Shown here: positions 1 to 19,407 of the stretch, piece by piece
Position numbering within the stretch: the stretch's first letter is position 1
Layout of the letters: every line of letters begins with the position of its first letter
Source: Pseudomonadota bacterium
Lineage (GTDB): Bacteria; Pseudomonadota; Alphaproteobacteria; Rickettsiales; UBA8987
Direction: 5' to 3'
DNA: 64,000 nucleotides
Assembly (NCBI GenBank): GCA_048498735.1
Contig: JBEHXK010000004.1
Location: forward strand, 2,283 to 66,282
Notes under the pieces: model-generated
Told to the model about the DNA's origin: nothing
What the model saw: only the letters and a program-made list of their open reading frames with translations
The model's database searches: none
Made by a program: the position numbers and the translations under genes

Positions 1-3000
1 ATCAGTTTTGCCATCAGCGCCTATGCTTATATTCCTGCCCACCAGAAGAACGTGCTGTTCGGTTGTACAGAAATCTTCACGGCAACGAGTTGTGGTTGGA
101 TTATCTACCGGGCAATTACACCAGAAACCAAACGGTTCTGTTTCACCGTATTTACTGATATCACCAGATGAAGGAGGTTTGTTCAACCAGAATTCCTGCT
201 GCTGCACCGAACCACTTGCATAATTCCTGAAGCTTTCAAGTGCATAATCCGGATCACCATCTGTAACGAGAGTGGTCATACCACCAGATACATCTATAGA
301 TCCTAAACCACCAAGATCACCACTGAACTGATCAAGGCCTTTATCAATTTTATTTGCCAGATCAGCTGCACCCACTGCTTTTGCTGCCGTAGAAAGTGCG
401 GTTTGTGCTGCACCCAAGAATTTGTCTATAGTTGTAAGCGTGCTGTTTATTGTATTTAGAGTGGATGCTATGGTATTAACAGCTGAAGCCGCGGTATTTA
501 ATGTATCATCAATGCTATCTAATGTTGGCTTGAATTCAGCAGATGCATTCATGCTTATAGAACCTGTTACGCCGTTCTTCATATTCGTACATACGTTTTG
601 CGCCTGAGTGAAGAATTTAGTTACCCCTGTTGCCGTTGATATTTCGCTACCGATCGCACTAGATAGGTCATCACCTGCTTTCATGGAATCATCAAATGCA
701 TCCATATACTCGCTTGCGCCGAAAACACTTGCCAGAACATCAGCAACAGTCTTGATAGTTTTAAAGCCAAATTTAACTTTTGCCTTACCTATGTTGAAGG
801 ATATAGAAATTCCTCGGATAGCTTGAAGCGTGCCGTTAAGCTTATCATCAACCGGTTTAACTATATTGGTCTGTAATTTATTTACCGTAGCTTTTGCTGT
901 TGCCAACGATGAATTAACAGTCGGGCCGGTTTCACCAGGTTCATCAACGCGACCATCATAATTGTCATCAATATGATTGCTTGCAAAAGGAGGATCACCT
1001 GCTGCAGGCTGGGTCATAGGTTTATCACAAAAATCAGACTGCGCATAACCACTTGCACTCGCCTTACTTAGTTGATCTACGGTCCCCCTGAGCATTTTTG
1101 AAACCCTTTGCAGATTTTGTATATCTGATTGCAGTGATTCCGTTTTTTCATCAGCTTCATCTACAGTGCCATCACCATCGTTATCCACACCATCTTTATT
1201 GGCAGGTTGTCCGCTGGAATTTGTTGAACTGCCTGAAACAAGGTTATTTATATCTGTAATATATTTACGAACGGTGGTTTCCAGTTTTTTGATATCGCCC
1301 AGAGTATTTGCTATATCTGTAAGGGTTTTCTTGTAATCTGCGGTTGTACCGCCGCCGCTGGTGCTGCTGCTTGCAGTTACGCTGTTGCTGGAACTATAAG
1401 ATGTATCATCCGATGTAGCATTTGCCGGGGTTATAGTTTTTGTTACTGTAAAGTTGGAACCGCTCTGGGTTCCTATTATCACCGCTTCAAATTCTTTTTC
1501 ACGACCATAGAACGTATCACCACGAGTAGCATAATCTATTGCCCTGATAGCGTTATCTACAGCTTTTTCTACAGATGTATATTTAGTTACAGTGTATTTT
1601 TTAGAGCTGCCTGTTCCAGTGCTTGATATTTTGTAACACCCGGTTTTCCTACATGCACCTGTATAGAAATTCTCTTTAGGATCAACATTGCTTCCAGGAA
1701 CTTTAGCAAGCGCATTATCTACGGTGCTTGCCATTGAACCAACTAAAGATAAATCACATTCAATTGGATCATCCTGGCCATAAACAGCAAGCGCTACGTT
1801 CACCACTGCCTTAGCTGCTTCGCACAGAGCATTTTGTTTATTGCGGGCCAATGCATCAACGTTCTCGTGGCATGGACTCTTATACCAATCAGGATTACCA
1901 TTTGTCTTATCGTAAGATACAGAACCAGGAACATCAATCACAGGGCCGGTGCAATCAAGGAAAGATTTCAGGAATTCATAATCAAAGCGAGGAAGCCTCC
2001 ATGCAATTATTTTCGGATCAGTTGTTCCGCGCTTATAAAGATCCAGCCAACCAGCGCAACGTGACTTGCTTGCAGGATTATCTTCACCCAGCAACCATTT
2101 ACCAAGCATTGTGTTAGGATCGTCAACCCAAGTTGAACGCACACCGAATGGACCACATGTATCGCGTATCCTCTCAACCCTATATAGCTCAAGTTTAGGT
2201 TTTGCAGCCGCAAGATCAACCGGATCGGACTTTGTTATTATAGTGTCCATATTATTGACCCAGAAGTGAGACATGATAGGCGTTTTGTTGAAATTAAAAT
2301 CATTATCAACTTTAATATCATTTCCTACAGTGTCCTTACCGGCAACGTTACCCTTAAAGAACGGATTATATGGAACTTCGAATTCACACCAGAAAGCTTT
2401 ATTTAAACCAACTGCAATAGACCATGCGTGTGGTAACCACTCAAAATAAGGTGTTTCATTATCACGAACTTTGAAACCACCGAATTCTTTATTGTCTGTA
2501 TATGTTATGCTGCCGCCTGAAGATGAGGATGAATTGGATGGCGGTGGTGTAAGGATCGGCATTTTACCGATATTGATATCATCATAAACATGCCATGCAT
2601 CACGAACCTGGTTTGCATTAGGAGAATCTTTGTCTATCTGATAATATTTCCTGCCATCAGCATCTACTATCAGATCATTATTGCCAGAACTATCGGCATT
2701 TTTCTTATTATACACTTCATCTATAACACTTGTAGGTACGTTTGGTATGTCTGGCCATCCTTGTATACCAAACAAGTTAGGAACCAGACCGATGGTTTTT
2801 GTTATATTTATAGGCTGATTGTGAATACATGAACTTGCAGGCCATGAATGATCAACCCATTCTTTGCTGGCTGTAAGGTTACTCTCATTCAACACCATGA
2901 CACCAAGTTTTGGACCCGTATCAACTGTGCGAGGAATTTCCTCATAAGCTTCATATGTACCATCACCGCCAAAATAAGCATAATCAACAGCAGCATCTGC

Positions 3001-6000
3001 ATTTTGACTGTCTGTCAGGCCATTTGTTTCCCAAGTTTTTTCTGCCATATGCTGGCTCAACATCGCCTTGCCACCCGCACGACCTATCCAGTTATCTTCT
3101 ATATAAACCGGGCTGCCTGAAGCACCGACCGTACCGAGTTCATATTTTTCCCAGTTCTGTTTTATATACATGCCAGAATCGGTATTAAAGCCATATGCAT
3201 AAACAGGCAGGCTAGGAATTGGAGTTATTAGAGATATAATCGGCGCATTAATATCTGTAGTCATCCAGTGCTTATATTTATAATTTGCACCACCAGCATT
3301 TAACGTATTGTTAATCACATCAAATGCAGCTGACACTACTGCCGAACCAAGTTTTGCTACACCACCACCACTCGCCATTGAATCTGAAAGGCTATTAACG
3401 ATCTTAGCACCAACGTTAGGATTACATATACCCCAAGGATTACTATCACTGACACCAAATGGATTTATAACATCCTTCCAGAAATGAGGTGGAACAACCG
3501 AACGGCAATTCCTTCTTTCCATATTCACCTGGTAACCAAGACCGTTCGTAACAGTTGATACAACATCAGAAACGTTTGTAGGATCTATAACAGGTGAGTA
3601 AAGATCAGATGTCAGTGGGATTGTATCACCGGTTATAGTTTTGGCCGCATCTGCAAGGGTTTGGAGCTGCTGGTTATTAAATGGACTACCATCACCAATA
3701 CGTGTCCCGTTCGTTAGATCACGCTGCTCTGACATCACAGAAAGTGCGCTGAAACTCAGGAAGTTATAATAGTCAAATATCTCAGGCCTGTAACCTCTTC
3801 TTCTTCTAAAACCATAATCGTTCATGTTATTCAGATTGTCGCTTAATGCACTATCAATTGCTTCCAACCCTTGGCCAACAAGATTTTTATTGTTGACGCT
3901 GGATGATTCCAAACGTTCAGGATCACTGCCAGGAAGTGAAGCAGGAGCATTCCATGATGTAAAGGCACCCACAACATTTGGCAGCGTACCACCGACCAGA
4001 TTCAGCTTTTGAGAATCAGGCGCATTAAGAACATTTTTGCGGTAGTTATTGTTCTTATCCTGCATTTTATAGAAATAATAAAGCATGGTCGCTTTGAAGG
4101 CATTACGCCCCTCCAATGCATTTTCCATACCGTAATTATCTGATGTATCGTAATATGCGACCCACTGGCACATGCTTGAATCCGGAGTTACGGCACCAAC
4201 AGTATTCCTTATAACTTTTTGGTTCGTATCAAGAACTATCGATCCCCTATCGCCTTCAAATGCCCATTGCTCAATGAACAATCTCAAGCACTGCTGCATC
4301 TTGGCTTTACGTCCCTGGTTCGATTCCACCGAAAGCACGCGAGGATCAAAGGTCTGAGGTTTTGCTCCATCCTTAGCATCAGGCGCATAAATATTATATG
4401 GATTTATAGAATAATCATTACGGCTTATTACTTTATCACGATAACCATACTCTTCCAGGCTCTGCTGGTTATGAGTAGTTGTATCACCTGATTTTGACTG
4501 CTGATCATAAACAACTCTTTCAGCGTAAGGAGTGAAACTCGGTCTTCTGTAATCCGTCGGTGTATAAATATTATTGCGGCCGAATATATCTTTCTGATTC
4601 ACCGCCGGAGTTCCAGAAGGTATCACACCTTTATACGCAAGCGGCAACCAGTGCTCCTCAGGATCAAGATCAAGAACATATGGTTTTGAAGCACTTTTTT
4701 CCCAACAATATGTATTATAGTTAAATACATATCTGTTATTGATATAGTTCTGAGTTATAGCAACCGGCACCCCGGCAATGTTGGTGGTTTGATATTCACG
4801 ATTCATGTAATAACCGCAGTAATCATCCATTTCTGCTACAGTATCATTAGCCAGGCATACAGGCAGGGAACCGCTCTGGATCCTGGCATCATCAGATGGC
4901 AATTTTACTTTCTGCATCGCTTTTACCTTTGCAGCAGGATCGCCAAGATTAACACCAGGAGAACCTGAGCTGGAACTTGATCCAGTAGAACTTGACGAAG
5001 TGGAAGTTGTTACTGAAACCATAGCGGCATTATGCTGAATCACGCAAAGAGGATGGCGCATCAGAAGCCTGTCATTAGGAACAAGATAGGTTGTGGTTTC
5101 AGCTGTAGGATCAGCAGCGGTATTGTCAGGATCAGTTCTCCCTTCAACTTTACCAGAAACCGCATCACCGGCACCGATAACTTCTTCATCCATTGGCAGG
5201 TTGGTATCATTTACAGGATTTTGCACAGAAACGATTGTTTTTGTGTATTGGCTTAAGAAACATTCATCTGCCATGGCTGCCGCTGCTGCCGCTGCTCCAG
5301 TTACTCCGGTAAGTTCGTCCAGGTCAACCACCCTTCTGGTAGGCTGATAGAATTTTATCGGCGTAGCATCTTTCCATTGACAGTTATACATAACTGACTT
5401 GGCATTATTGCTCGCATCAAACGCAAGCGGAGTACCGGCTTTATTGACAACCGGCTTGCTGAACTTGCCGGCAGGCATTAACACGAATCTCTCTTCAGGA
5501 TCATAACAACCGGTGCGGGATTCATATATATCTTCACTTGATGATCTTGCAGAAGTATCAAACGGCACGGCCTTATTGTTATTCACATAATGATTGCCAT
5601 CGGTAATATTAGGCAGATTGGAGTCTTGGGCAGGCAGATGCGTGTAGAAGAATTTACCGCGACCGCAATTACCTTTGTACGGGTTATTCTCACTGCTAAT
5701 TATATTCTGATAAGTTGTATCGATCGAATTATAAGCAGAACCTTCCTGCGCATTTGTGTTAGCAGTTTTACCGCCATCACTTGTTGAGTAATTCGGGAAT
5801 TTATCAAAATCAGGTTTGCCACTTGGGATCAACAAGCAATCTGGAACAACCATGCTCAATAAACCGCTTACACCATTCTGTATAACGCTACCAACATTAA
5901 TGTTAATACCATTAGAGCCGGTTATGGAGCTGGTTCCAAGCATCGGCTCACAACCTTGAGATTTAATTATATTATCTTTATTTCCGGTGATACCATCACG

Positions 6001-6633
6001 GGAAACTTTTACGCGGCGATCTTCATAACAATCTTCACATTTTTTCGTATTACCATCATGAACCGTACAGCCATCTTCCTGCATGATAGCAAATTTTATA
6101 CCCCATATATTCCTGGTACATGAATAATCGCCTGCTGAACAACCTTTATCGCAAGAACTTTGGCCTGGCGCATACGGATCTGTTCTTGCATCGGCATTTC
6201 TGAAGTAGCATTTGTCGATCATTTTATTTTCGTCCTTGAAAATACCAGTTCCAAGGAATCCATTCAGATCGATACCCTCCTTATATGCCACTATATACTG
6301 ACATTCGCCTTTTAACTGCGCCTTAACCTGCTGAAACGAAACTCTACAGTCTTCCTGCAATCTTGCTTTTATGCCTTTTGCAAGATTACCAGCAAAACAT
6401 AATAAACCATGCTTATCGGCCTGCGATATCGTGTTACAGATACTTGCATCAACATCTTTTGCGTAATAGGTATGAGCGCGGGTATCACCGCATGTCGCAT
6501 TCGGGTCCCAGCTTATTTCAAGAGGGGGAAGCCAGTTAACGCTTGGGTCAAATTGAGCGCTTTGCGCACCGGAAGAAACTATAGCAGCAAGGGCTATGAT
6601 AGGTATTTGGAGGATTTTCCAGTATTTCTTCAT
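1..6633 (-). CDS. Giant secreted protein of unknown family; N-terminal 2,211 codons only (the gene runs off the left edge of the window)
   Basis: Absent from the supplied ORF track, presumably because it has no in-window stop. Hand translation of the reverse strand gives ATG at 6633-6631 and then an unbroken frame to position 1 (6633 = 3 x 2211). Plus-strand triplets in register 1,4,7... never read tta/cta/tca. The N-terminus MKKYWKILQIPIIALAAIVSSGAQSA is a Sec signal peptide. Only 60-92 aa shadow ORFs lie on the + strand across the same 6.6 kb. Confidence 0.85.
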   Translation of the reverse strand, partial: MKKYWKILQIPIIALAAIVSSGAQSAQFDPSVNWLPPLEISWDPNATCGDTRAHTYYAKDVDASICNTISQADKHGLLCFAGNLAKGIKARLQEDCRVSFQQVKAQLKGECQYIVAYKEGIDLNGFLGTGIFKDENKMIDKCYFRNADARTDPYAPGQSSCDKGCSAGDYSCTRNIWGIKFAIMQEDGCTVHDGNTKKCEDCYEDRRVKVSRDGITGNKDNIIKSQGCEPMLGTSSITGSNGININVGSVIQNGVSGLLSMVVPDCLLIPSGKPDFDKFPNYSTSDGGKTANTNAQEGSAYNSIDTTYQNIISSENNPYKGNCGRGKFFYTHLPAQDSNLPNITDGNHYVNNNKAVPFDTSARSSSEDIYESRTGCYDPEERFVLMPAGKFSKPVVNKAGTPLAFDASNNAKSVMYNCQWKDATPIKFYQPTRRVVDLDELTGVTGAAAAAAAMADECFLSQYTKTIVSVQNPVNDTNLPMDEEVIGAGDAVSGKVEGRTDPDNTAADPTAETTTYLVPNDRLLMRHPLCVIQHNAAMVSVTTSTSSSSTGSSSSSGSPGVNLGDPAAKVKAMQKVKLPSDDARIQSGSLPVCLANDTVAEMDDYCGYYMNREYQTTNIAGVPVAITQNYINNRYVFNYNTYCWEKSASKPYVLDLDPEEHWLPLAYKGVIPSGTPAVNQKDIFGRNNIYTPTDYRRPSFTPYAERVVYDQQSKSGDTTTHNQQSLEEYGYRDKVISRNDYSINPYNIYAPDAKDGAKPQTFDPRVLSVESNQGRKAKMQQCLRLFIEQWAFEGDRGSIVLDTNQKVIRNTVGAVTPDSSMCQWVAYYDTSDNYGMENALEGRNAFKATMLYYFYKMQDKNNNYRKNVLNAPDSQKLNLVGGTLPNVVGAFTSWNAPASLPGSDPERLESSSVNNKNLVGQGLEAIDSALSDNLNNMNDYGFRRRRGYRPEIFDYYNFLSFSALSVMSEQRDLTNGTRIGDGSPFNNQQLQTLADAAKTITGDTIPLTSDLYSPVIDPTNVSDVVSTVTNGLGYQVNMERRNCRSVVPPHFWKDVINPFGVSDSNPWGICNPNVGAKIVNSLSDSMASGGGVAKLGSAVVSAAFDVINNTLNAGGANYKYKHWMTTDINAPIISLITPIPSLPVYAYGFNTDSGMYIKQNWEKYELGTVGASGSPVYIEDNWIGRAGGKAMLSQHMAEKTWETNGLTDSQNADAAVDYAYFGGDGTYEAYEEIPRTVDTGPKLGVMVLNESNLTASKEWVDHSWPASSCIHNQPINITKTIGLVPNLFGIQGWPDIPNVPTSVIDEVYNKKNADSSGNNDLIVDADGRKYYQIDKDSPNANQVRDAWHVYDDINIGKMPILTPPPSNSSSSSGGSITYTDNKEFGGFKVRDNETPYFEWLPHAWSIAVGLNKAFWCEFEVPYNPFFKGNVAGKDTVGNDIKVDNDFNFNKTPIMSHFWVNNMDTIITKSDPVDLAAAKPKLELYRVERIRDTCGPFGVRSTWVDDPNTMLGKWLLGEDNPASKSRCAGWLDLYKRGTTDPKIIAWRLPRFDYEFLKSFLDCTGPVIDVPGSVSYDKTNGNPDWYKSPCHENVDALARNKQNALCEAAKAVVNVALAVYGQDDPIECDLSLVGSMASTVDNALAKVPGSNVDPKENFYTGACRKTGCYKISSTGTGSSKKYTVTKYTSVEKAVDNAIRAIDYATRGDTFYGREKEFEAVIIGTQSGSNFTVTKTITPANATSDDTSYSSSNSVTASSSTSGGGTTADYKKTLTDIANTLGDIKKLETTVRKYITDINNLVSGSSTNSSGQPANKDGVDNDGDGTVDEADEKTESLQSDIQNLQRVSKMLRGTVDQLSKASASGYAQSDFCDKPMTQPAAGDPPFASNHIDDNYDGRVDEPGETGPTVNSSLATAKATVNKLQTNIVKPVDDKLNGTLQAIRGISISFNIGKAKVKFGFKTIKTVADVLASVFGASEYMDAFDDSMKAGDDLSSAIGSEISTATGVTKFFTQAQNVCTNMKNGVTGSISMNASAEFKPTLDSIDDTLNTAASAVNTIASTLNTINSTLTTIDKFLGAAQTALSTAAKAVGAADLANKIDKGLDQFSGDLGGLGSIDVSGGMTTLVTDGDPDYALESFRNYASGSVQQQEFWLNKPPSSGDISKYGETEPFGFWCNCPVDNPTTTRCREDFCTTEQHVLLVGRNISIGADGKTD

Positions 6634-6814
6634 CTGCCGCCAGTATCTCTAATATAGCAATTATACAATATTTTAATAAAAAATTAACTAAAAATTCATA
6701 AAATATGCTAAAATATTCTTCTTTTTGATCGACATATACTTATATATACTCATCACTGTCTAGACAATTAAATTTTGCTTAAAATCGCTTTATTACGGGA
6801 TTTTTATTATAAAC

Positions 6815-7600
6815 ATGTCAGAAAGCCGTAAATTCAATAATGATGACTATCGCGAACTTGCCGAAAAGATAGAATCCGGCCAATATTTCCAGGAAGCACA
6901 GGACTGGTATCTTAAGAAATATATGTACCAGTTCATTGAGCGGTCATATCTGATAATGCTGCTTCTGGCATTACTTATACTGGGCATGTTCCTGCGCAGT
7001 TATTATCATAGCATTTTACCTATCAGGAAAAGCTTGCCTATCCAGGTTAATATTTCTTCTGCGGCGGAATATTCAACGCGCATAACCTATCTTGGCAACG
7101 GCCGTAAAGATTTTGATGTGAATGATGTTTATGTGAATTATTTTGCAGGACGTTTTGTTGAAGCGATTGAAAGCTATGATTACCGGGATGATTTCAAGAA
7201 ACTGCGTATCAACAAAACCCTTATACATGAACTGGCTTCAAGTGATATATATGATTACTACATGGATAAAATATCGATTCGTAACGCAGATAGCGTGATT
7301 TTAAAATATCGCAAAAAAATATACCGCGTTATTAACGTTGATAAATCGAAAACTGAAATAGCCCTGATCCCTAAGGACAAGAACGATATCTATAATGACA
7401 AGAATGATGATATGCGCAAATATCAGGCAACAGTGAATTTCACCGCAACTGAATATGACCGCAACGGTATAGGAACTAAATCAAACTGGCAGGCTAAGTT
7501 TATCTTGTCTTTCCAGACCATAAAATATAATTTCAAGGAAAAGGATTTTTCACCGCTGAATTTTAAAGTTTTGAGCTATGAGAGTAAAAGGATCGATTAA
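6815..7600 (+). CDS. virB8: VirB8-like type IV secretion inner-membrane protein
   Basis: 261 aa. The cytoplasmic N-terminus carries YFQEAQDW (cf. VirB8 YF.EA.SWE). One TM helix (YLIMLLLALLILGMFL) is followed by a periplasmic domain with RFVEAIESYDY and C-terminal SPLNFKVLSYE (cf. Brucella VirB8 NPLGFNVTSYR). It overlaps the next gene by 23 nt. Confidence 0.7.
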   Translation: MSESRKFNNDDYRELAEKIESGQYFQEAQDWYLKKYMYQFIERSYLIMLLLALLILGMFLRSYYHSILPIRKSLPIQVNISSAAEYSTRITYLGNGRKDFDVNDVYVNYFAGRFVEAIESYDYRDDFKKLRINKTLIHELASSDIYDYYMDKISIRNADSVILKYRKKIYRVINVDKSKTEIALIPKDKNDIYNDKNDDMRKYQATVNFTATEYDRNGIGTKSNWQAKFILSFQTIKYNFKEKDFSPLNFKVLSYESKRID

Positions 7601-8429
7601 GTTTTTAGCACTGCTGGGGATTTTACTTCTGGCAAATAATTCATATGCAGCAAATGCCGTGAAAAGCATGCCTATAAACGGTGACAGAAGATTGCGCATG
7701 TGGAATTACCAGCCTAATACCATGTATGAATATACCGGTGTTACAAAAGCACCTTCCCGCATAGAACTTGACCCGACTGAAGAGATAGCAAGCATAACAA
7801 TGGGTGATCCGACCGACTGGCAGATAAACCCGGTAGGATCTACTCTTTTCCTGAAGCCAGTTGCAGCGAATGCCAATACGAACATGACAATCATCACCAA
7901 TAAACGCACATATTATTTTGAGATGTATTCAAAAGAAGGCACTGGCATGGATGACCCGGATATGGCCTTACTGACGAAATTCAATTATGTTGATGCCGAA
8001 GGTGCCAATGGCGATTCAAACTCAAGCGACTTTATCGACCTTTCCTCTTCTGCAACTACAGGCGCACCTGATTATGTTCCTGACCCATTGCAAAGCACAA
8101 AAGGTCTGAACTTAGGATATAGCATGAGCGGCTCTAAGGATATAGCACCACTCGAGGCTTTTGATGATGGCGAATTCACCTATTTCAAATTCAAAAATAT
8201 TAATGCTGATTATCCTGCGATCTTCCAGGTTCTGCCCGATGGAAACGAAGCTATTGTGAATTACCGAGTTTCAAGAAATGGTTATGTGGTGATAGAGATG
8301 GTCACCAGCCAATATACGCTTCGCTTCGGCAGTCAGATGGCTTGTATATTCAATGATTCCAAGCCTCTTCCTTATGTTAGCAGGAAAATAAAGAAGAGCA
8401 ATGAGGCCTCTTCCTACGGCATATATTAA
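7578..8429 (+). CDS. virB9: VirB9/TrbG/CagX-family type IV secretion outer-membrane core protein
   Basis: 283 aa. Signal peptide MRVKGSIKFLALLGILLLANNSYAANA. The N-domain shows YEYTGV...ITMGDPTDWQINPVGSTLFLKPV...TNMTIITNKRTYYFEM. The C-domain shows PLEAFDDGEFTYFKF...PAIFQVLPDGNEAIVNYRV..GYVVIE....YTLRFG. Both are classic VirB9 signatures. Confidence 0.8.
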   Translation: MRVKGSIKFLALLGILLLANNSYAANAVKSMPINGDRRLRMWNYQPNTMYEYTGVTKAPSRIELDPTEEIASITMGDPTDWQINPVGSTLFLKPVAANANTNMTIITNKRTYYFEMYSKEGTGMDDPDMALLTKFNYVDAEGANGDSNSSDFIDLSSSATTGAPDYVPDPLQSTKGLNLGYSMSGSKDIAPLEAFDDGEFTYFKFKNINADYPAIFQVLPDGNEAIVNYRVSRNGYVVIEMVTSQYTLRFGSQMACIFNDSKPLPYVSRKIKKSNEASSYGIY

Positions 8430-8491
8430 TAACTTCCGATATTGAACTTCCTCTTGAATTCCAAGCAATTCTGGGATAAATACAGAGCCCT

Positions 8492-10282
8492 ATGAATAAA
8501 AAGAATAAAGATCTTCCATTTAAAAATCCTGAGAACGGATCGGAACTGGTTCTTAACACTTTATATGAAGAAGGTGTTGAGGTTATTTTCGGCTATCCAG
8601 GTGGCGCAGTTCTTCCTATATATGATGCGATTTTCAAACAGGATAAAATCCGCCATATTCTTGTTCGTCACGAACAAGGTGCTGCACATGCCGCAGAAGG
8701 TTATGCACGCTCGACCGGTAAGGTTGGCGTTCTGCTTGTAACATCAGGCCCCGGTGCAACAAATACCATCACTGGTTTGACTGATGCATTGCTTGATTCA
8801 ATTCCATTAGTTTGCATCACCGGACAGGTTGCAACTCACCTGATCGGCTCCGATGCCTTCCAGGAAGCTGACACTGTGGGCATTACGATGTCATGCACGA
8901 AACATAATTACCTGGTTAAGGAATCAGGCAAGCTTGAGAATATTATCCGCGAAGCGTTCTATGTGGCTAAAAGCGGCCGCCCAGGCCCGGTTGTAATCGA
9001 CCTGCCAAAAGATATACAATTGAAACCGGCTGTTCCATCAGTTGATCATAAATTAAAAGCGCATGATTCTTACAAGCCTTCAACCGATGCTAACGCGGAA
9101 GAAGTTAAAAAGGCCGTAAAACTTATGGCTGAAGCTAAGCAACCGGTTTTCTATACTGGCGGCGGCTTGATAAACTCGGGCGAAGAAGCTTGCGAGCTTC
9201 TGGTTGAGTTCGTAAAACTTACTGGTTACCCGATCACCAGCACATTGATGGGCCTTGGCGCTTACCCGACCAATGATCCGCAATTCCTGAAAATGCTCGG
9301 CATGCACGGCTCACTTGAAGCCAACATGGCGATGGCTAAATGCGACGTGATGATAAATATCGGCGCACGTTTTGATGATCGTATCACCGGCAGGAAAGAT
9401 GCCTTCTCGGTTGGTTCGAAAAAGATCCATGTTGATATTGATGCTTCGTCGATAAACAAAAACATTAAAGTTGATATCCAACTTGTTGGTGATGCAAAAC
9501 ACGTATTGAAGCAGCTTATCGCCGAATGGAAAAAACAGAATTACAAGGCTGATGAGCTGGCACTTAAAAAATGGTGGAAGCAAATTGATGAATGGCGCGA
9601 AGCAAAATCTTTTGCATATCGCAATTCAGAGAAGGCCCCTCGCCCGCAATATATTCTTGATACATTAAACCGCCTGCTGCAGAAGGAAAAAGATTATTTC
9701 GTGACAACGGATGTTGGCCAACACCAAATGTGGGCAGCGCAATATATTGATTTCAAAAAACCAAATCGCTGGCTGACTTCTGGCGGCCTTGGAACAATGG
9801 GATATGGCCTGCCTGCGGCTCTGGGCGCACAAGTTGCGAACCCGGATAAAACGGTTGTTTGCGTTTCCGGTGAAGCTTCAATCCAGATGAATATCCAGGA
9901 ACTTTCAACCATAGTTCAATATCGCCTGCCGGTAAAATTGCTGATTTTGAATAACGGATATATGGGCATGGTTCGCCAGTGGCAGGAACTTTTCCACGGC
10001 GACAGAAAATCTGAGAGCTATATGGAAGCTTTGCCAGATTTCGTAAAACTTGCAGAAGCTTATGGCATTAAAGGCATCAGGTGTGAAAAACCTGCCGATG
10101 TTGAATCTGCTCTGAAAAAGATGCTGGATTATGATGGCCCGGTTGTTATGGACATGCTGACCGATAAGGCTGAAAATGTTTATCCGATGATTCCGGCTGG
10201 TGCTGCGCATTACGAGATCAAACTTAACCCTGATTCACCTGATATCAAGGTGGATAAGGCTGAGGCTGCAAAGCAGGTTTAG
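8492..10282 (+). CDS. ilvB: Acetolactate synthase (AHAS) large catalytic subunit
   Basis: 596 aa. Motifs [40 protein letters not shown] and the ThDP-binding [16 protein letters not shown]...[12 protein letters not shown]. Confidence 0.9.
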
Positions 10283-10298
10283 ACCCTTAAAGCTTAAT

Positions 10299-10314
10299 TG
10301 GCATAAGAGTTGCT
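10299..10314 (+). promoter_or_regulatory. Candidate sigma-54 (-24/-12) promoter for the 10346 gene
   Basis: TGGCAT-AAGAG-TTGCT compared with the consensus TGGCAC-N5-TTGCW. GG and GC are separated by exactly 10 nt. The site is intergenic, about 32 nt upstream of the ATG at 10346. Confidence 0.55.
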
Positions 10315-10319
10315 AATAT

Positions 10320-10341
10320 AATCCTTAAAACCTTAAGGATT
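10320..10341 (+). promoter_or_regulatory. Perfect 9-bp stem / 4-nt loop hairpin covering the Shine-Dalgarno of the 10346 gene
   Basis: AATCCTTAA-aacc-TTAAGGATT. The 3' arm contains AAGGA (10335-10339), 6 nt upstream of the ATG. No T-tract follows, so it is not a classical terminator for ilvB. Confidence 0.5.
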
Positions 10342-10345
10342 AGTC

Positions 10346-10984
10346 ATGAGCATCAATAATTTAACCTCTTCTTACTATAATTTGAGCCAGCAGCTTGCGT
10401 CACAAAGCAGCTCTAGCGGAACAAGCAGTTCATCCGATATTGATTCGCTCATTAAGCAGCTTGAAGGTGCAAGCACCTCAACTTCATCAGACAGCAATGA
10501 TGCTTTCAGCCTGAATTTAAGCCAAAGCGCACAAGATCTGCTTGATTCCGGATCTACAAACAGCACAAGCAGCTCCTCATCAACTGCAAGTTATACACTT
10601 ACAAAAGCGCAGCAGAAACAGCTTGATGCGATTCTTGCTAAATATAAGGATGCACCTTTTACACAAGATACATATAACCAGATCCAGGATGAGCTTCAAA
10701 AGGCTGGACTTGCACCAGATCAACTAGCTACTGAAGATAAAATAAAAAGCTTTAATACCACTCAGGTATTTATCGATGCGCTAAATGGCAAGGATGATTC
10801 CTCTTCATCTTCAACATCATCTGATGGCAGCACTTCAAGCAGTGACAGCACTGATTCTGATACAAAATCATCTAACTATATGCAGCAAGTGGTTTCGCAA
10901 TGGAAAAGCATTTCAACTACAGCCAATGCTGATAACTCTTCCACTGATCAAACATCAGGAAGCGGCATTTCAATTGATGCTTAA
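10346..10984 (+). CDS. Ser/Thr/Asp-rich low-complexity protein, no signal peptide or TM segment
   Basis: 212 aa. Ser runs include SSSSGTSSSS, STSSSSST and DDSSSSSTSSDGSTSSSDSTDSD. A less biased central block reads YTLTKAQQKQLDAILAKYKDAPFTQDTYNQIQDELQKAGL. Good SD. The N- and C-termini resemble those of the convergent neighbour. Confidence 0.7.
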   Translation: MSINNLTSSYYNLSQQLASQSSSSGTSSSSDIDSLIKQLEGASTSTSSDSNDAFSLNLSQSAQDLLDSGSTNSTSSSSSTASYTLTKAQQKQLDAILAKYKDAPFTQDTYNQIQDELQKAGLAPDQLATEDKIKSFNTTQVFIDALNGKDDSSSSSTSSDGSTSSSDSTDSDTKSSNYMQQVVSQWKSISTTANADNSSTDQTSGSGISIDA

Positions 10985-11008
10985 AAAAATAGAATTTTTG
11001 AAGATAAA

Positions 11009-11509
11009 TTAAGCTACGTCAGAATAAGTAGAGCCTGAACCCGAACCAGTGTTAACCAGCGTATTAGTTGCGCTTTCATATGCGCTGATCGCTTTCTGGA
11101 TAGGATCGGTGCTTAAAGCGGTTGTGCTGTCATTAGAAATAGATGAACTTGCATTCGTGCTGTAAGCGGTTTTTAGCAGATTATTATATGAACTTGAAAG
11201 CAGGCTGTTCACCAAGCCATCATCGCTACTATTGCTACTACCTAATATATCAGATGTAGTGCTGGTGCCGCTAAGAAGTTGGCTAAGAAGTGAAGCAACA
11301 TCAGATGAAAGCGAAACCTGATCCTGGTTTTGGCTTGAAGTGTTATTTGTAAGCGCTTTTGTAAGGGTATCAGTTAGTGAATCTGCAAAGCTTGAACTTG
11401 AATCATCACCTGAAAGCAGACTGCTTATAGAACTTGCTGTTGAATTTGAAGAACTCTTGCTACCAAGAAGTGAGCTAAGATATGAAGTAGTGTTCAATAT
11501 CGATGTCAT
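11009..11509 (-). CDS. Ser/Thr-rich low-complexity protein, paralog-like partner of 10346..10984
   Basis: 166 aa. The N-terminus MTSILNTTSYLSSLLGS matches MSINNLTSSYYNLSQQLAS in the partner. The C-terminus NTGSGSGSTYSDVA matches TSGSGISIDA. No signal peptide or TM. Confidence 0.65.
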   Translation of the reverse strand: MTSILNTTSYLSSLLGSKSSSNSTASSISSLLSGDDSSSSFADSLTDTLTKALTNNTSSQNQDQVSLSSDVASLLSQLLSGTSTTSDILGSSNSSDDGLVNSLLSSSYNNLLKTAYSTNASSSISNDSTTALSTDPIQKAISAYESATNTLVNTGSGSGSTYSDVA

Positions 11510-11732
11510 GAAAATAATATAGCACAGAAAGATGGGTTAAACAAATTTAATCACAGAAATTATTTCGTATTTTAAATAGAATTTTTATACCGTTGCTTTT
11601 AAGTTTGCAACTCTACGGCTGAACCGCCAAATCTCTGTGCTTACTTATTATTTTCTTATGATTCCAACCTTAAGTTTATATCGATAGGTTATATGAATCG
11701 CGATATTCTTTATTCATAATAAGAATCTTATA

Positions 11733-12134
11733 ATGAATATGGGCTTAAGATTTAAAAAAATATTTATCGCATTTTTCATGATAGCCGGACTCGATGCCTG
11801 TTCGACTGTTGATAATATGAATTATATGGACAGGAATGACTTGATTCAAGCACGCGGCACAGAAAATATCGATGGCGTGAGATATATGGATTATGGTAAT
11901 ACAAGCAGTATAAAAAGTTTAGGAGCACTGAAATTTAAAGGCTTTGATGAAGATAGCGGTGAACCTGATGATACTGTTATAGATCTGAAACGTAATAAAT
12001 CACGTTTATATGCTGAAACGCCCGTGTTTGAAAGCGACAACAAAGATAAATCCACCTTCGATAAAGGCCTGTTCAACTTCGGCATAGATAAAAAATCCAA
12101 AGGCCTTGGTATGGAACTTTCACTGCAATTCTAA
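11733..12134 (+). CDS. Small putative lipoprotein
   Basis: 133 aa. The N-terminus MNMGLRFKKIFIAFFMIAGLDAC has a lipobox-like LDAC, which is atypical at position -2. Confidence 0.5.
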   Translation: MNMGLRFKKIFIAFFMIAGLDACSTVDNMNYMDRNDLIQARGTENIDGVRYMDYGNTSSIKSLGALKFKGFDEDSGEPDDTVIDLKRNKSRLYAETPVFESDNKDKSTFDKGLFNFGIDKKSKGLGMELSLQF

Positions 12135-12228
12135 GGTTTATTCACTGCAACAATCAGAAATTTGAAACGCACATGCTTTTGTAAAAAGCTGGCCAATGTG
12201 CATTTTTCTAATATTTTTGGTTGTTTTT

Positions 12229-12274
12229 CCCAAATTTCAAATATACTATCCCATGATATCCCATAAAAAACCAT
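12229..12274 (+). promoter_or_regulatory. Candidate MraZ operator: phased CCCA/CCAT repeats upstream of mraZ
   Basis: CCCA occurs at 12229, 12250 and 12260, within TATCCCAT repeated exactly 10 bp apart. CCAT occurs at 12271. The reverse complement TGGGA matches the TGGGN repeat class bound by E. coli MraZ. The site ends about 30 nt upstream of the mraZ start. Confidence 0.35.
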
Positions 12275-12304
12275 AACGGCGTTTTGTGATACAGGGGCAA
12301 AAAA

Positions 12305-12766
12305 TTGAGTATTTTTCTTTCTACATATATTAACAAAATCGATAAAAAGGGGCGCGTTTCAGTGCCTGCCGCCTATCGCACCGTTACAGCAAAAGAAAAT
12401 TTCCACGGTATAATCGCTTACCCTTCATTTGTGCATGAATGCATTGAAGCCTGCGGCATAAGCCGCATTGAAAAGATCTCGGAAGCTATCGACACTATGG
12501 ACCCATATAGCGAAGATCGTGATGCCTTTGCGGCAGCAATCTTGGGTGAAGCACAACAGCTTGGTTTTGATAATGAAGGACGCGTAACACTTTCAGAGCA
12601 ATTGATAGAAAAAGCAAAGCTGAAAGATCAGGCTATTTTTGTCGGCAAAGGCCAGACCTTTGAGATCTGGAACCCGGATAATTATAATAAATATGCACGT
12701 AATGCCCGTGATATTGCAAAACAAAATCGCGGCAAACTTAGTTTGATAGGTAAAGCGGGCAAATGA
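12305..12766 (+). CDS. mraZ: Transcriptional regulator MraZ
   Basis: 153 aa. SIFLSTYINKIDKKGRVSVPAAYR plus a second DNEGRVTLSEQL repeat. It is the first gene of the dcw block. The track start is TTG. Confidence 0.9.
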   Translation: MSIFLSTYINKIDKKGRVSVPAAYRTVTAKENFHGIIAYPSFVHECIEACGISRIEKISEAIDTMDPYSEDRDAFAAAILGEAQQLGFDNEGRVTLSEQLIEKAKLKDQAIFVGKGQTFEIWNPDNYNKYARNARDIAKQNRGKLSLIGKAGK

Positions 12767-13800
12767 GATATCTGATCAACATACAGGATTATTCCCTTGA
12801 TGAGATTTGTTATATATACGAGAAGGCTGAGACATTAAAATATTTTGCTGAAATGAACTATGAACATCACATACCAGTATTGTTAAATGAAACATTGGAA
12901 CTTCTGCAGCCAAAAGATGGGGAAGTTTATGTTGATTGCACTTTTGGTGCCGGCGGTCATACACATGCGATATTAAAAGCTGCAAATTGTAAAGTGATCT
13001 CGATCGATCGCGACCCTCATACAAAACTTCTTGCGGATAAATTTGAAGCAGAATTCGGTGATCGCTTTACGTATGTGAATGATCGATTCAGCAATATCGA
13101 CAATATTCTTGATGATCTGAAAATTGAAAAAGTTGACGGCATAATCATGGATCTTGGTTTTTCCTCCATGCAGGTTGATACGCCACGTCGCGGCTTTTCA
13201 TTCCAGGCGGAAGGCCCGCTTGATATGCGCATGAGCAGCAGCGGTATTTCAGCGGCCGACTTCATCAACAATGCGTTTGAAGAAGAGATATCAGATATAC
13301 TTTACCGTTTCGGTGATGAGAAAAAATCCCGTCCGATCGCACGTGCAATTGTCCGCGAACGTGCAAAAGAAAAAATCACTACCACCACCAGACTTGCAGA
13401 AATAATTTCCGCCGCTGCTGGAAAATATGATGATGACATCAATGCTGCGACGAGAAGTTTTCAGGCGATAAGAATTTTCATCAATGAAGAATTTGAAGAA
13501 TTAAAAACTGTGTTGCAAATAGCAAAAGATCGATTAAAAGAAAATGGTAGGTTAGTTGTAATTACGTTCCATTCCGGGGAAGATAGTATAGTGAAAGATT
13601 TCTTTAAGAAGTATTCAGGCTCTGAAAGCCGCAGTTTCTCAAGGTATTCGCCGTCTTCAGTTTTGCCGCAGAATTCCGTCGCAAATGATTTTGAATTGCT
13701 CACCTCAAAACCTATCGGGCCAAGTGATGAAGAAATTGAAAATAATATTCGTGCACGTTCAGCAAAAGTTCGTGCAGTAAAAAGACTGGCGGCATTATAA
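12763..13800 (+). CDS. rsmH: 16S rRNA (cytosine1402-N4)-methyltransferase RsmH
   Basis: Motifs HIPVLLNETLELL, DCTFGAGGH, DLGFSSMQVD and RSFQAIRIFINEE. Conserved sequence begins near aa 36, so the ATG at 12853 (MNYEHHIPVLL) is a plausible alternative start. Confidence 0.9.
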   Translation: MRYLINIQDYSLDEICYIYEKAETLKYFAEMNYEHHIPVLLNETLELLQPKDGEVYVDCTFGAGGHTHAILKAANCKVISIDRDPHTKLLADKFEAEFGDRFTYVNDRFSNIDNILDDLKIEKVDGIIMDLGFSSMQVDTPRRGFSFQAEGPLDMRMSSSGISAADFINNAFEEEISDILYRFGDEKKSRPIARAIVRERAKEKITTTTRLAEIISAAAGKYDDDINAATRSFQAIRIFINEEFEELKTVLQIAKDRLKENGRLVVITFHSGEDSIVKDFFKKYSGSESRSFSRYSPSSVLPQNSVANDFELLTSKPIGPSDEEIENNIRARSAKVRAVKRLAAL

Positions 13801-13803
13801 AAT

Positions 13804-14139
13804 ATGAAAGTCAGACTTAGCACATATATTTATATTATTTCATGCCTGGCGATGGCGTGCATGGTATATTATTTCGAAAATAAGGTGCATGAAGTTACGG
13901 AAAAGATAGCCGATGTTAATGAGAAACTATCACATTATGATAATGACCTGCGCGTTCTTGAAGCTGAATGGAGCTATCTGAATGATCCAGACAGACTTGG
14001 AAAGCTAACCGCTCAAATCCATGATGATATGAACAGTCCGATAAGGGTGCAGTTCACTAACCTGAAAGATCTTCCTACACGTGAAGTGATGTCTGCCAGC
14101 AATGCGGGCAATATAACCGCGCAGAATATAATTCCATGA
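13804..14139 (+). CDS. ftsL: Cell division protein FtsL-like (single-pass membrane protein)
   Basis: 111 aa. N-terminal TM (YIYIISCLAMACMVYYF) followed by a coiled-coil-like segment. It holds the canonical position between rsmH and ftsI and overlaps ftsI by 4 nt. Confidence 0.65.
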   Translation: MKVRLSTYIYIISCLAMACMVYYFENKVHEVTEKIADVNEKLSHYDNDLRVLEAEWSYLNDPDRLGKLTAQIHDDMNSPIRVQFTNLKDLPTREVMSASNAGNITAQNIIP

Positions 14140-15872
14140 GAAATCCGGCACGCCCAAGGCCAAGCCTGATACTTGAAGGTTCAATCGACAGGGCGATCAA
14201 ACGTGCACAAGTAAGGCTTATAATATTGGGCTGCATGATATTGATCACTTTCCTTGCGGTTGCTGGTAAAACAGTAAAGCTAACTTTCTTCTTTGAACCG
14301 GAAGCCATCAAGCGCCTGAGCTACACAAAATCAGCAATTGAGCGTGCAGAAAACCCAGTTCCGACATCAGAAAAATTCCGCAAATCAATATATGATCGTA
14401 ATGGAATTCTGATTTCCTCGAACCTTATAACCTCATCACTTTATTGCGATCCGAAAGTCATGATCGATGAGAAGAACGCCGCACATCAGCTTGCAGCGAT
14501 CTTGCCGGAACTTGATGAAAAAGACCTATATAAAAAATTTACTGATAAAACTAAAAGCTTCGTCTGGCTGAAACGCAGCCTGCACCCAAAACAGAAATAT
14601 GAGATCAATGCGCTTGGTATCCCGGGTCTGAACTTTGAAGATGAGGAAAAAAGGATCTATCCGCACGGTAATCTGTTCGCGCATGTTATAGGCATGGTTG
14701 GCCAGGATGGCCACGGCCTGAGCGGCTTGGAAAAATATCTCGATACAGTTCCAATAGATAGTTATGACAAAGTTCTGAAAAACGACAGTATAGTCACCAC
14801 ACTTGATACACGTATACAATCTATCCTTCATGATGAGGTTCAGAAAGCATTTGATAAACACCACCCTGTGAATGCCAGCGGTATTGTCATGGATGTAAAT
14901 ACCGGCGAAATTTTGGCCATGGTGAGCCTACCTGATTTTGATCCCAACCTGCCACGCAGTGTTAAGCCTTCGAATATGTTCAATATGGCAACGCTTGGTG
15001 ATTACGAGCTTGGCTCGGTATTCAAGCCATTCACTTTTGCAACCGCGCTGGATAACGACAAAATAAACGAAAAGATGATCTTCGATGCAAGCCATCCACT
15101 GCAAATCGGCAAGGCAAAGATATCAGATTATCATGCCAAGAACCGTCCGCTTTCTGTGCCAGAAATATTGATGTATTCATCTAATATTGGTACTGGCAAG
15201 ATTGCAATGGAAGTTGGCATGGATAAAATGCAGGATTATTTCCACCGCTTCCATTTCTATGACAAGCTTGATACTGAAATTCAGGAAAAATCTACCCCCA
15301 CTACACCGAAAAAATGGAGCGAAGTTGGTTTGGTTACTATGTCATTCGGCCATGGCCTTGCATTATCACCATTACATGTGGCAGCGGGTTTAAGCGCGAT
15401 CGTTAATGGTGGATATTATTATGAACCTACACTTATAAAACGTTCAAAATCTGAGCAGCTGACGCAGCCAACACGTGTTATTTCCAAGAAAACATCTGAA
15501 CGCATGCGCGTTCTATTGCGCCTGGTCGTGGCAGGTGGTTCGGGAACACATGCGAATGTGGATGGTTATCTGGTCGGTGGTAAAACTGGAACTGCAAATA
15601 AGATCGAAGGCGGAAAATATAGCGACAACCGGGTTGTCGGTTCATTCATTGGTGTGTTCCCTTATAACGACCCAAAATATCTGGTGTTTGTTGTGCTTGA
15701 TGACCCTAAAGGAACGCCTGATACGCATGGCTTCATAACCGGCGCTTGGGTTGCAGCGCCCGCGGTTGCCAATGTTATAACCCGTATGGCGCCGATAATG
15801 AAAGTTCGTCCACAACAGGATGACACCAAAGAGATATTGACTAAATTCGGCCTTGAAAACGCCTCCGATTAG
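14136..15872 (+). CDS. ftsI: Peptidoglycan D,D-transpeptidase FtsI (class B PBP)
   Basis: 578 aa. TM anchor plus SxxK (GSVFKPF), SxN (YSSNIG) and KTG (GKTGTA) motifs. Confidence 0.9.
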   Translation: MRNPARPRPSLILEGSIDRAIKRAQVRLIILGCMILITFLAVAGKTVKLTFFFEPEAIKRLSYTKSAIERAENPVPTSEKFRKSIYDRNGILISSNLITSSLYCDPKVMIDEKNAAHQLAAILPELDEKDLYKKFTDKTKSFVWLKRSLHPKQKYEINALGIPGLNFEDEEKRIYPHGNLFAHVIGMVGQDGHGLSGLEKYLDTVPIDSYDKVLKNDSIVTTLDTRIQSILHDEVQKAFDKHHPVNASGIVMDVNTGEILAMVSLPDFDPNLPRSVKPSNMFNMATLGDYELGSVFKPFTFATALDNDKINEKMIFDASHPLQIGKAKISDYHAKNRPLSVPEILMYSSNIGTGKIAMEVGMDKMQDYFHRFHFYDKLDTEIQEKSTPTTPKKWSEVGLVTMSFGHGLALSPLHVAAGLSAIVNGGYYYEPTLIKRSKSEQLTQPTRVISKKTSERMRVLLRLVVAGGSGTHANVDGYLVGGKTGTANKIEGGKYSDNRVVGSFIGVFPYNDPKYLVFVVLDDPKGTPDTHGFITGAWVAAPAVANVITRMAPIMKVRPQQDDTKEILTKFGLENASD

Positions 15873-15897
15873 CCTATATTCTTCACACTTTTAGCCA

Positions 15898-18800: not shown

Positions 18801-19407
18801 CAACCTGCTTGGAGATGAGCAGAGTGGTAACATTAAGGAAGTTGGGGTTGAGCTTTATCAAAGCATGCTGCGTGATGCAATTGATTCCCTAAAAGCCAGC
18901 AATGATAATGTTGAAGAAGAAAAAAGTGATGGCATTTATTCTATAAAACTGAATTTAGGCATTTCCGTTCTGATACCGGAAAATTATGTTAACGATTCTG
19001 ACTTGAGAATGGGTCTGTATCGCCGCCTCGGCAATTTACAGAACGAAGCAGAGATAGAAAGCTTCGCGGTTGAGCTGGCAGATCGTTTTGGAAAAATACC
19101 TGAGGAAGTAGAAAATTTACTGGAAACATTAAAGATAAAATTTTTATGCCGCGAACTTGGCATTGAAAAACTTGATGCCGGTGAAAAAGGAGCTTCGATC
19201 CAGTTTCATAATAATAAATTCGCATATCCAGATGCGCTTATCAAGTTGCTGGCCATGAATCCGGTGCGCTTCAAAATAAAAGATGGCAGCAAATTCATAA
19301 TCGCGAATTGCAATTGGGCTGACCTGAAAGTGCGCGTGTTGGAATTAAAGAAGGTTCTGACCGAGATAAAAAACTTTGTGCATAACAATATAGTTAATGT
19401 GGCATGA
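15898..19407 (+). CDS. mfd: Transcription-repair coupling factor Mfd
   Basis: 1,169 aa. Superfamily-2 translocase motifs GDVGFGKTEVA, DEEQRFGV, TATPIPRT and QLRGRVGR. Confidence 0.95.
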   Translation: MALKFNIKNSTRNFLSDIPAGSEVFPLIEMAENSPGGLVHICKNDFYLEKIHDLLSFFAPQIKLYSLPAWDTNPYDKVSPNPEVISERLKTLADISGGLKKCEIVLTTANALIQKLVPLEVIKASHLNIKVKQQIKREDILSFLVNNSYINVAAAADHGEFAVRGSIIDIFPPSSANGIRLDFFGDEIETIRTYDPLTQISLSNIDAFELIPASEVLLNKKYIDSFKENFLGEFGPESGKDPVFEAVMEGRKYPGFENYLPLFYGRLASIFDYAPQAIYSFEHDLEPVVEERHAHIKDSYNARLSYAKSGRYGNADHFIPPEKLYIMEEEYKKLLSNRTEVFFSHYNMPESIIAGYKPITSYFAEAKPHNRSALDLFRDELAENFNKNNKTKTIIACMSAGSSERMASLLTEHEIKNILITDYSKEQALLNRTNVGVAVLALEHGFEAEGIKLVSEADLLGEKIYRRKSGRGKKAEDFIREAANLSTGELVVHKEHGIGKFIGLETLKINNTEHDFILLEYLGGDKLYVPVENIELISRYGGDSEHVEVDKLGSLQWQERTAKVKKRIKVLAEELIKIAAEREVRGGTVFDFQSGAYEEFASRFPYVETDDQLGAIEDVMDDIVSGRPMDRLICGDVGFGKTEVALRAAFAVVQNNNKEQRAQVAVICPTTLLCRQHYNTFLQRFEGTGIVIKQLSRMVSSGDIKKSKEAIKNGEVDIVIGTHALLAANMEFKNLSMIIIDEEQRFGVAQKEKLKKLRANTHVLTLTATPIPRTLQLSLTGIRDLSLIATPPVDRLAVRTFVMPYDDVTIREAILKEHYRGGRTYFVAPRITDLEALEKRLKENIPEVRIVSAHGRMKPDELDKIMNDFDEGKFDVLLATTIVESGLDVSAANTIIIYRADMFGLAQLYQLRGRVGRSKVRAYAYLTVPPRKILTKHAEKRLEVMQKLDSLGAGFTLASYDMDIRGFGNLLGDEQSGNIKEVGVELYQSMLRDAIDSLKASNDNVEEEKSDGIYSIKLNLGISVLIPENYVNDSDLRMGLYRRLGNLQNEAEIESFAVELADRFGKIPEEVENLLETLKIKFLCRELGIEKLDAGEKGASIQFHNNKFAYPDALIKLLAMNPVRFKIKDGSKFIIANCNWADLKVRVLELKKVLTEIKNFVHNNIVNVA

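Follow-up and report, generated by a model that had tools for sequence, protein, structure and literature searches.

The locus described here raises the question of what is encoded by a very long reading frame on the reverse strand of the first 6,633 positions of the window, and whether it belongs to an intact gene. The window is the whole stretch of DNA that was analysed, 64,000 nucleotides (nt) of contig JBEHXK010000004.1 (assembly GCA_048498735.1, positions 2,283 to 66,282) from an alphaproteobacterium of the Rickettsiales. A reading made from the letters alone, which we call the original prediction, had proposed a single intact giant open reading frame (ORF) that begins with a Sec signal, runs past the window and encodes a protein of no recognisable family. 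We find that this holds, and to judge from sequence comparison the giant protein belongs to a previously undescribed and very rare superfamily. As to what it does, we tentatively favour an exported protein of the envelope that is stabilised by disulfides, ends in a papain-like hydrolase and may be tied to a type IV system, a reading that we would call plausible sooner than probable.

The reading frame of the giant gene

Computed translation of the window from 6633 to 1 on the reverse strand gives 2,211 sense codons and zero stops, and the probability of such an open frame in random sequence of the same composition is about 1e-59. The ORF list for 1-6633 shows only ORFs of 80-92 amino acids (aa), in line with the earlier remark that nothing but small ORFs is listed here, because the list omits ORFs that run off the end of the source. 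The giant ORF is cut by the window edge at position 1 and the reading continues past the window. In its homologues the protein runs on for 807-1,016 aa after the conserved block C, which puts the full window protein at about 3,000-3,200 residues, and 6633..1 is the N-terminal part, approximately two-thirds, of this single protein. Its parts are as follows.

6556..6633, reverse strand: start codon and Sec-type signal peptide, MKKYWKILQIPIIALAAIVSSGAQSA (residues 1-26; from translation and hydrophobicity)
4969..6555, reverse strand: N-terminal cysteine-rich region (residues 27-555)
5275-5295, reverse strand: Ala7 run
4960-5007, reverse strand: Ser linker, TSTSSSSTGSSSSSGS
1501..4968, reverse strand: conserved core (residues 556-1711; alignments A3-A5)
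4129-4866, reverse strand: block A (residues ~590-835), with GSLPVCL, LEEYGYRD, GRKAKxQQCLRLFIEQWAFEGD and MCQWVAYYD
2509-2547, reverse strand: Ser linker, PPPSNSSSSSGGS
1924-2436, reverse strand: block B (residues ~1400-1570), with WCEFEVPYNP, KPKLELYRVERIRDxCGPFG and WRLPRFDYEFLK
244..1500, reverse strand: lineage-specific insertion of ~420 aa (residues ~1712-2130)
1348-1395, reverse strand: third linker, Ser/Thr, SSSNSVTASSSTSGGG
1147-1188, reverse strand: acidic loop of DxDxDG type, VDNDGDGTVDEADE
931-969, reverse strand: acidic loop of DxDxDG type, DDNYDGRVDEPGE
373-525, reverse strand: A/T/S/N-rich stretch, helical and coiled-coil-like
1..243, reverse strand: residues 2131-2211, where the conserved C-terminal half begins; truncated at the window edge
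64-141, reverse strand: block C, EPFGFWCNCPxDxxTTRCREDFCT (residues 2165-2190)

Comparison with the homologues shows the gene to be intact and under purifying selection: the proteins are 33-43% identical over about 1,700 aa and share many invariant residues, 28 Cys among them. A contig of a second deposited assembly (JBEHXW010000052.1 of GCA_048498495.1, our locus L011) is identical to window positions 1335-14020 except for its last 15 bases, and this identity argues against frameshift errors in that part. The contig terminates within the giant gene at window 1335, beside the Ser/Thr-rich low-complexity stretch at 1348-1395, in what looks like a short-read assembly break. This break, together with the cutting of the gene by the window, is what could be put forward for a decaying pseudogene or an assembly chimera. 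Given the stop-free codons, the identical sequence in the second assembly and the colinearity with intact homologues of 2,388-3,338 aa, with conserved sequence resuming downstream of the insertion, such an explanation is close to refuted.

The signal peptide has no lipobox cysteine, and the N-termini of close homologues are equivalent and end in ...AQ(S/T/A). In 19-residue Kyte-Doolittle windows the best mean is 1.58 and falls on residues 7-25, which are the signal peptide, with a runner-up of 1.41; across the 2,211 residues no hydrophobic stretch outside the signal peptide has the strength of a membrane segment. The N-terminal region is indeed cysteine-rich, as had been proposed, with 13 Cys in the first 265 residues where 14 had been counted, and with 42 over the whole window part. 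Residues 27-555 contain 19 invariant Cys in alignments A1 and A2, and the family-invariant motifs of this region are GNCGRGKFFY (321-330), TGCYDPEERF (374-383) and VPNDRLLMRHPLC (518-530), the second of which is retained as TGCYxPEERF even among the most distant family members. No internal repeats were detected in the window protein by self-BLAST. The motifs that the original prediction quoted are all present within a few nucleotides of where it had placed them, and the lack of RTX, Rhs and Ig-repeat signatures and of transmembrane segments that it reported is borne out by Pfam, self-BLAST and hydrophobicity.

Family architecture and the C-terminal module

The window protein has no above-threshold match in Pfam, NCBIfam or PHROGs, and in these libraries the same was true of the homologues scanned, both compact and long, and of 25 distant members. 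Profile searches against PDB sequences with five tiles, three of them from the N-terminal region and core of the window protein, and with the catalytic-looking module described below gave no significant match. The earlier claim of no recognisable family is therefore upheld in these searches. The known link appears to be limited to a faint papain-like similarity at the far C-terminus, the remainder having no relatives in the curated libraries or the PDB.

The giant protein is not an orphan, and most carriers of its family are uncultured Rickettsiales. When 1.84 billion (1.84e9) representative proteins were searched exhaustively with an HMMER profile, 34 relatives were recovered. Their lengths are 273-3,596 aa, with 29 exceeding 1,000 aa, and all ten whose cluster size was checked are singletons. 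A signal-peptide-like N-terminus is present in most of the 34, and most share blocks A and B in an unchanged order. From 5.8 billion proteins, a word-indexed search recovered five homologues (2,388-3,338 aa, 33-36% identity), one from a Rickettsiales metagenome-assembled genome (MAG), and DNA scans contributed three further lineages (L005, L006 and L012). Among the genome-scan matches listed, every one is an uncultured Rickettsiales MAG.

The blocks common to the members are colinear and consist of TGCYxPEERF (374-383), block A (~590-835), block B (~1400-1570) and block C with the C-terminal half. Block C has the family consensus GFWCxCP...C..E..CT (window residues 2167-2190), and BLAST finds it 37-70% identical to its counterpart in nearly every family member. 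The compact member P0024, of 1,301 aa, carries the entire architecture. Since compact members hold all of it, the window protein can be regarded as an expanded form of a unit of about 1,250 residues, and the lineages appear to have enlarged this architecture through insertions at fixed hot spots.

One such site lies between the motifs ATRGD and PFGFWC, which are 465 aa apart in the window protein and 64-74 aa apart in P0003, P0004, P0005 and P0006 (the last being the protein of locus L012). In P0001, the protein of locus L010, 545 aa separate them and these have no similarity to the window insert. The site is an insertion hot spot across lineages. The window's own insertion contains the third Ser/Thr linker, the two DxDxDG-like acidic loops and the helical A/T/S/N-rich stretch, and against Pfam and NCBIfam it has only sub-threshold coiled-coil or acidic-repeat matches. 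All three kinds of feature had been offered as functional clues. Because they lie in a private, lineage-specific insertion they are silent on the function of the family, and a calcium-binding or coiled-coil function for the family was rejected on the ground that both features are confined to it.

The C-terminal module lies beyond the window edge and was read in the homologues, where it was found in 30 of the 37 sequences searched. Its motifs are GPRGCDIGGWYEMMLYQARC, RHxAYVE and ExNWGKxxDSCGNT, and the fuller pattern reads IVGPRGCDIGGWYEMMLYQARCI..C.CDY.KTF, then GD..I.DE, RRHxAYVE and E.NWGK..DSCGNTDRW. In alignment A9, made from 13 divergent members, C20, H197, E219 and an Asp are invariant and N221 is nearly so; the Cys, His and Glu are kept although the members otherwise share about 25% identity. 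The order of the catalytic residues of CHAP domains (Cys, His, polar third) is found in the homologues, and CHAP (PF05257) is the sole recurrent Pfam family, matching 6 of the 13 isolated modules with a best E of 2e-5. An AlphaFold2 model of P0024, from a 26-sequence alignment, has a mean predicted local distance difference test score (pLDDT) of 46.7 and reaches 60-90 only within the C-terminal module, where it places the Cys just ahead of a helix, followed by strands bearing GDxxI, RHxAxVE and ExNW. When this model was compared with the PDB by Foldseek, papain-like proteases of the IdeS/Mac-1/IdeC type took ranks 1, 2, 3, 5, 6, 8, 10 and 12, with E of 0.5-3.5. The module is thus probably a papain-like Cys/His hydrolase, as far as motifs and model can indicate.

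The homologues also bear on a surface adhesin or Sca-like autotransporter passenger whose export is aided by TamA/TamB, as the original prediction had suggested. The giant size, the Sec signal and the N/D/T/G/S-rich composition would fit such a protein, and the genome does encode TamA and TamB. However, Pfam finds no beta-barrel or autotransporter domain, or other outer-membrane anchor domain, in the 27 longer relatives (P0001, P0004 and 25 others), most of which extend to the conserved C-terminal module, and no barrel in 5 isolated C-termini; the relatives end instead in the Cys/His module, and this best-conserved part resembles an active site, not a binding repeat. Tandem repeats and Ig-like arrays are lacking as well. 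As to a beta-helical passenger, the AlphaFold2 models of the body stay below a pLDDT of 50, too low to judge a fold, and self-BLAST gives no repeats. The proposed connection with TamA and TamB falls away with their position, at 50977-55253, about 44 kb from the giant gene and among housekeeping genes. We consider an adhesin or autotransporter very improbable.

Other known types were considered and rejected. An RTX or type I secreted protein has no Pfam match here, a Sec signal is present, and the only acidic loops are two isolated DxDxDG-like ones in the private insertion. For an Rhs/YD or polymorphic toxin there is no YD/Rhs Pfam match, and the C-terminal module is the best-conserved part, not a variable one. 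An extended VirB6/TrbL-type subunit of a type IV secretion system (T4SS) was set aside on the lack of any hydrophobic segment besides the signal peptide and of a Pfam match.

Neighbouring genes and the possible type IV link

The possible tie to a type IV system comes from the genes that lie upstream of the giant gene. Like the colinear superfamily and the catalytic-looking module just past the window edge, this gene pair had escaped the original prediction.

6634..6814, no strand: 181 bp of AT-rich intergenic DNA from which the giant gene and the VirB8-like gene diverge
6815..7600, forward strand: divergent VirB8-like gene, 261 aa, one membrane segment (Pfam VirB8 21.4 bits, cutoff 23.2)
7578..8429, forward strand: full-length VirB9 (CagX family) gene (Pfam CagX E 1.4e-53; TIGR02781 199 bits, positions 1-247 of 248)

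The VirB8-like and VirB9 genes overlap by 23 nt, and the VirB8-like copies at the relatives' loci are 46-59% identical. The giant gene and the VirB8-like gene are both probably transcribed from promoters in the intergenic region; a consensus scan of 6400-7000 gave no sigma-70-like site within 6634-6814, its single weak match being at 6947-6918, inside the VirB8-like gene. The gene after virB9 is not virB10, virB11 or virD4 and encodes an acetolactate-synthase-like thiamine pyrophosphate (TPP) enzyme, and a scan of 15 window ORFs, most of the largest among them, revealed no further T4SS genes. In Rickettsia and Neorickettsia rvhB8-II and rvhB9-I form one separate operon (PMC4676284). The VirB8-like gene resembles the atypical RvhB8-II class and the VirB9 resembles RvhB9-I.

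Upstream DNA is available for nine Rickettsiales-like lineages (the window, L001, L006, L008, L010, L012, L013, L017 and L022). In every one the giant gene lies head-to-head with a VirB8-like/VirB9 pair, and the flanks other than this junction vary among them. One of the nine is the lineage of P0022, a giant protein that is as far removed from the window protein as are the non-Rickettsiales-like members. This retained arrangement with the rvhB8-II-like/rvhB9-I-like pair suggests possible co-regulation of the giant gene with the rvh T4SS, at which its product may act.

On its other side, most lineages having downstream DNA encode, directly downstream of the giant gene, secreted cysteine-rich proteins of about 280-1,250 aa with repeated CC motifs. 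By transitive homology these are one family, which includes the non-Rickettsiales-like loci L018 and L021, and the giant gene with its CC-motif partner looks like the commonest conserved unit. The partners were located as follows.

L001, 18701-20755: CC-motif partner
L008, 17167-18405: CC-motif partner
L012, 11670-13158: CC-motif partner
L013, 12269-13336: CC-motif partner
L017, 15713-19474: CC-motif partner
L021, 14771-16900: CC-motif partner
L022, 14579-18208: CC-motif partner

The CC-motif partners have no Pfam match. The downstream ORF of L019 has no similarity to the CC-motif family and L020 has no such partner. Some loci have, between the giant gene and the CC gene, another small ORF for a secreted product whose N-terminus carries a conserved DSTGGLQ, and in L008 it is fused to the CC protein.

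Put together, the envelope hydrolase that we favour would work along these lines. Sec would export the giant protein, as the signal peptide suggests, and oxidative folding in the periplasm would follow export, with many disulfides formed from the at least 28 invariant cysteines stabilising the protein. The giant protein and its secreted CC-motif partner would reside in or on the cell envelope, and the C-terminal module may cleave an amide or peptide bond there; its target would be peptidoglycan or else a protein of the envelope or the host. The window would then hold the signal peptide, a non-catalytic conserved body (the Cys-rich N-terminal region and blocks A and B), the private insertion and the first motif of the C-terminal half.

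Looking at the weak points of this reading, several results count against it. All CHAP matches are under the Pfam gathering score of 26 bits, with the P0004 module at 16.6-20.8 bits, and the CHAP alignment is limited to the His half (profile positions 41-81). The Cys-to-His spacing is about 140-240 aa in the module, whereas in classical CHAP domains it is roughly 60 aa. A profile of the module found no match among PDB sequences, Foldseek gave no significant match in the PDB (all E at least 0.5), and Foldseek against BFVD gave noise and recovered no phage CHAP endolysin. The catalytic module lies outside the window, and for this genome we infer it from the homologues. Additionally, the models assign no fold to the approximately 1,700 conserved residues within the window, where pLDDT stays below 50; for residues 556-1715 (4-sequence alignment) the mean was 29.7 and the model was unusable. 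An outer-membrane export signal was not found, and we infer the envelope location of the giant protein. As for the type IV link, VirB genes near the giant gene are absent in four non-Rickettsiales-like loci (L015, L019, L020 and L021; the upstream DNA of L018 is too short to judge). The TPP enzyme gene beside virB9 is kept in seven of the nine lineages (not in L008 and L017) and is thus nearly as well retained, so the synteny may be merely ancestral gene order.

The upstream pair also invites the explanation that the giant protein is a two-step T4SS substrate or appendage, which after Sec export and periplasmic oxidation would pass through or onto the rvh outer-membrane core (VirB9) and serve as an effector, a toxin or an adhesive tip directed at the eukaryotic host. 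Such a route would suit the giant protein and its partners, which have Sec signals and conserved cysteines, as well as a divergent VirB8-like/VirB9 pair that is present in 9 of 9 Rickettsiales-like lineages despite their differing other flanks. In its favour, too, the rvh system is not known to have a VirB5-type tip protein. What the duplicated Rvh-II proteins do is likewise stated to be unknown (PMC4676284). This is countered by the members outside the Rickettsiales-like clade, which have no VirB genes nearby, and by the almost equally syntenic TPP enzyme gene, which is unrelated. Classical Rickettsiales own the rvhB8-II/rvhB9-I pair, yet the sampled matches come only from uncultured MAGs and metagenomes, from which classical Rickettsiales would lack the giant protein. 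There is also no sequence similarity to a known T4SS substrate or component in Pfam, NCBIfam or PDB profiles. On balance we hold this explanation to be unlikely. A more specific proposal, that the giant protein and its CC-motif partner are a new periplasmic-intermediate cargo or external appendage of the rvh T4SS, assembled with RvhB8-II and RvhB9-I, is in our view somewhat more doubtful still. If true, it would for the first time give the duplicated Rvh-II components a functional explanation, and pertussis toxin would be joined by a new class of T4SS substrate that depends on Sec.

The same adjacency could instead be inherited order only, with the giant protein acting as a periplasmic peptidoglycan-remodelling enzyme and scaffold that is unlinked to type IV secretion. 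This would agree with the CHAP-like motifs, with a Sec signal unaccompanied by an outer-membrane export signal, with the chromosomal housekeeping neighbourhoods, with the recurrence of cell-wall genes within a few kb at several loci, and with the TPP enzyme gene being co-retained with VirB9. However, 1,300-3,600 residues and a dedicated cysteine-rich partner are needless for a peptidoglycan hydrolase, cell-wall genes are common and may be near by chance, and 9 of 9 lineages preserve the giant-VirB8 junction, among them L008 and L017, which have not retained the TPP gene there. We see a peptidoglycan role of this kind as a minor possibility, and keep to an exported envelope protein with a hydrolase end as the working account.

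The remaining neighbours can be described briefly. Cell-wall genes lie a few kb from the giant gene in L008 (19015-22511, PBP5, RlpA-like and MltB-like) and L001 (23614-24150, YkuD), and others are found in L020 (18376-21337, SLT and SH3), in L022 (486-1430, Amidase_3), and as the cell-division cluster mraZ-rsmH-ftsI in the window (12305-15872) and L010. They differ by locus and their nearness to the giant gene may be chance. The ORFs at 14136-19407 of the window encode a penicillin-binding protein and Mfd. A Ser-rich ORF of 212 aa (10346-10984) of no family, which is identical in L011 (9012-9650), lies after the TPP enzyme gene and before the mraZ-rsmH-ftsI cluster. RpoN (22666-24198), GlnE (29688-32588), glutamate-cysteine ligase (20867-22093) and SerA (28007-29590) are also present in the window, and the relative locus L013 has the flagellar FlhA. 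Compared with classical obligate intracellular Rickettsiales, metabolism and regulation seem to have undergone less reduction.

Provided that it is real, which is what the evidence indicates, we have here a new, very rare superfamily of giant exported disulfide-rich proteins, with 34 clusters in 1.84 billion. It combines a catalytic-looking motif that hardly varies with a secreted partner of its own. It occurs in deep-branching uncultured Rickettsiales, a group whose transition to host association is an open question, and its fixed position against rvhB8-II/rvhB9-I provides a lead on the role of the duplicated rvh components. More generally, giant genes truncated by an edge can be hidden by ORF tracks, and the conspicuous features of giant proteins may be private insertions and not the conserved functional core.

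Comparison with known systems

The C-terminal module can be compared with CHAP/NlpC-P60 (PF05257, clan Peptidase_CA), which it resembles in having a Cys before a helix and then strands with GDxxI, RHxAYVE and ExNW. It differs in the insertion of 100-200 aa that separates the Cys and His halves, and in being embedded in a protein of 1,300-3,600 aa whose rest has no known relatives. The IdeS proteases are of clan CA as well and are the top, non-significant, Foldseek matches of the module.

Among systems that are known from Rickettsiales, the rvhB8-II/rvhB9-I islet, isolated from virB10-virB11-virD4, is what the window's VirB8-like/VirB9 pair resembles and to which it may correspond. The Sca autotransporters and the extended VirB6 paralogues share with the giant protein a very large size and Rickettsiales hosts; a passage of PMC7648143 associates VirB6-4 with the rvh T4SS. 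The giant family differs from both, having no autotransporter beta-barrel in the scanned homologues and no TrbL/VirB6 domains or membrane segments.

Two further comparisons concern secreted cysteine-rich proteins that work with a T4SS. F-type TraN is a cysteine-rich outer-membrane mating-pair stabiliser that is secreted and encoded beside T4SS genes. The giant protein is like it in its secretion signal, many conserved Cys and T4SS neighbours, which we regard only as a lead. The giant protein has 4-5 times the size, the genes beside it are of a P-type (rvh) system and not of an F-type one, and Pfam TraN, TraU and TraH give no match to the window protein even at E<=1. Pertussis toxin with its Ptl system is a Sec-dependent, disulfide-bonded T4SS substrate. 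The giant protein has no sequence similarity to it, has only two adjacent T4SS genes, and belongs to a family that also occurs where no T4SS genes are neighbours. The likeness is one of functional analogy only, and it lies in the predicted Sec export, the richness in Cys and the VirB8/VirB9 neighbours of the giant protein and its partners.

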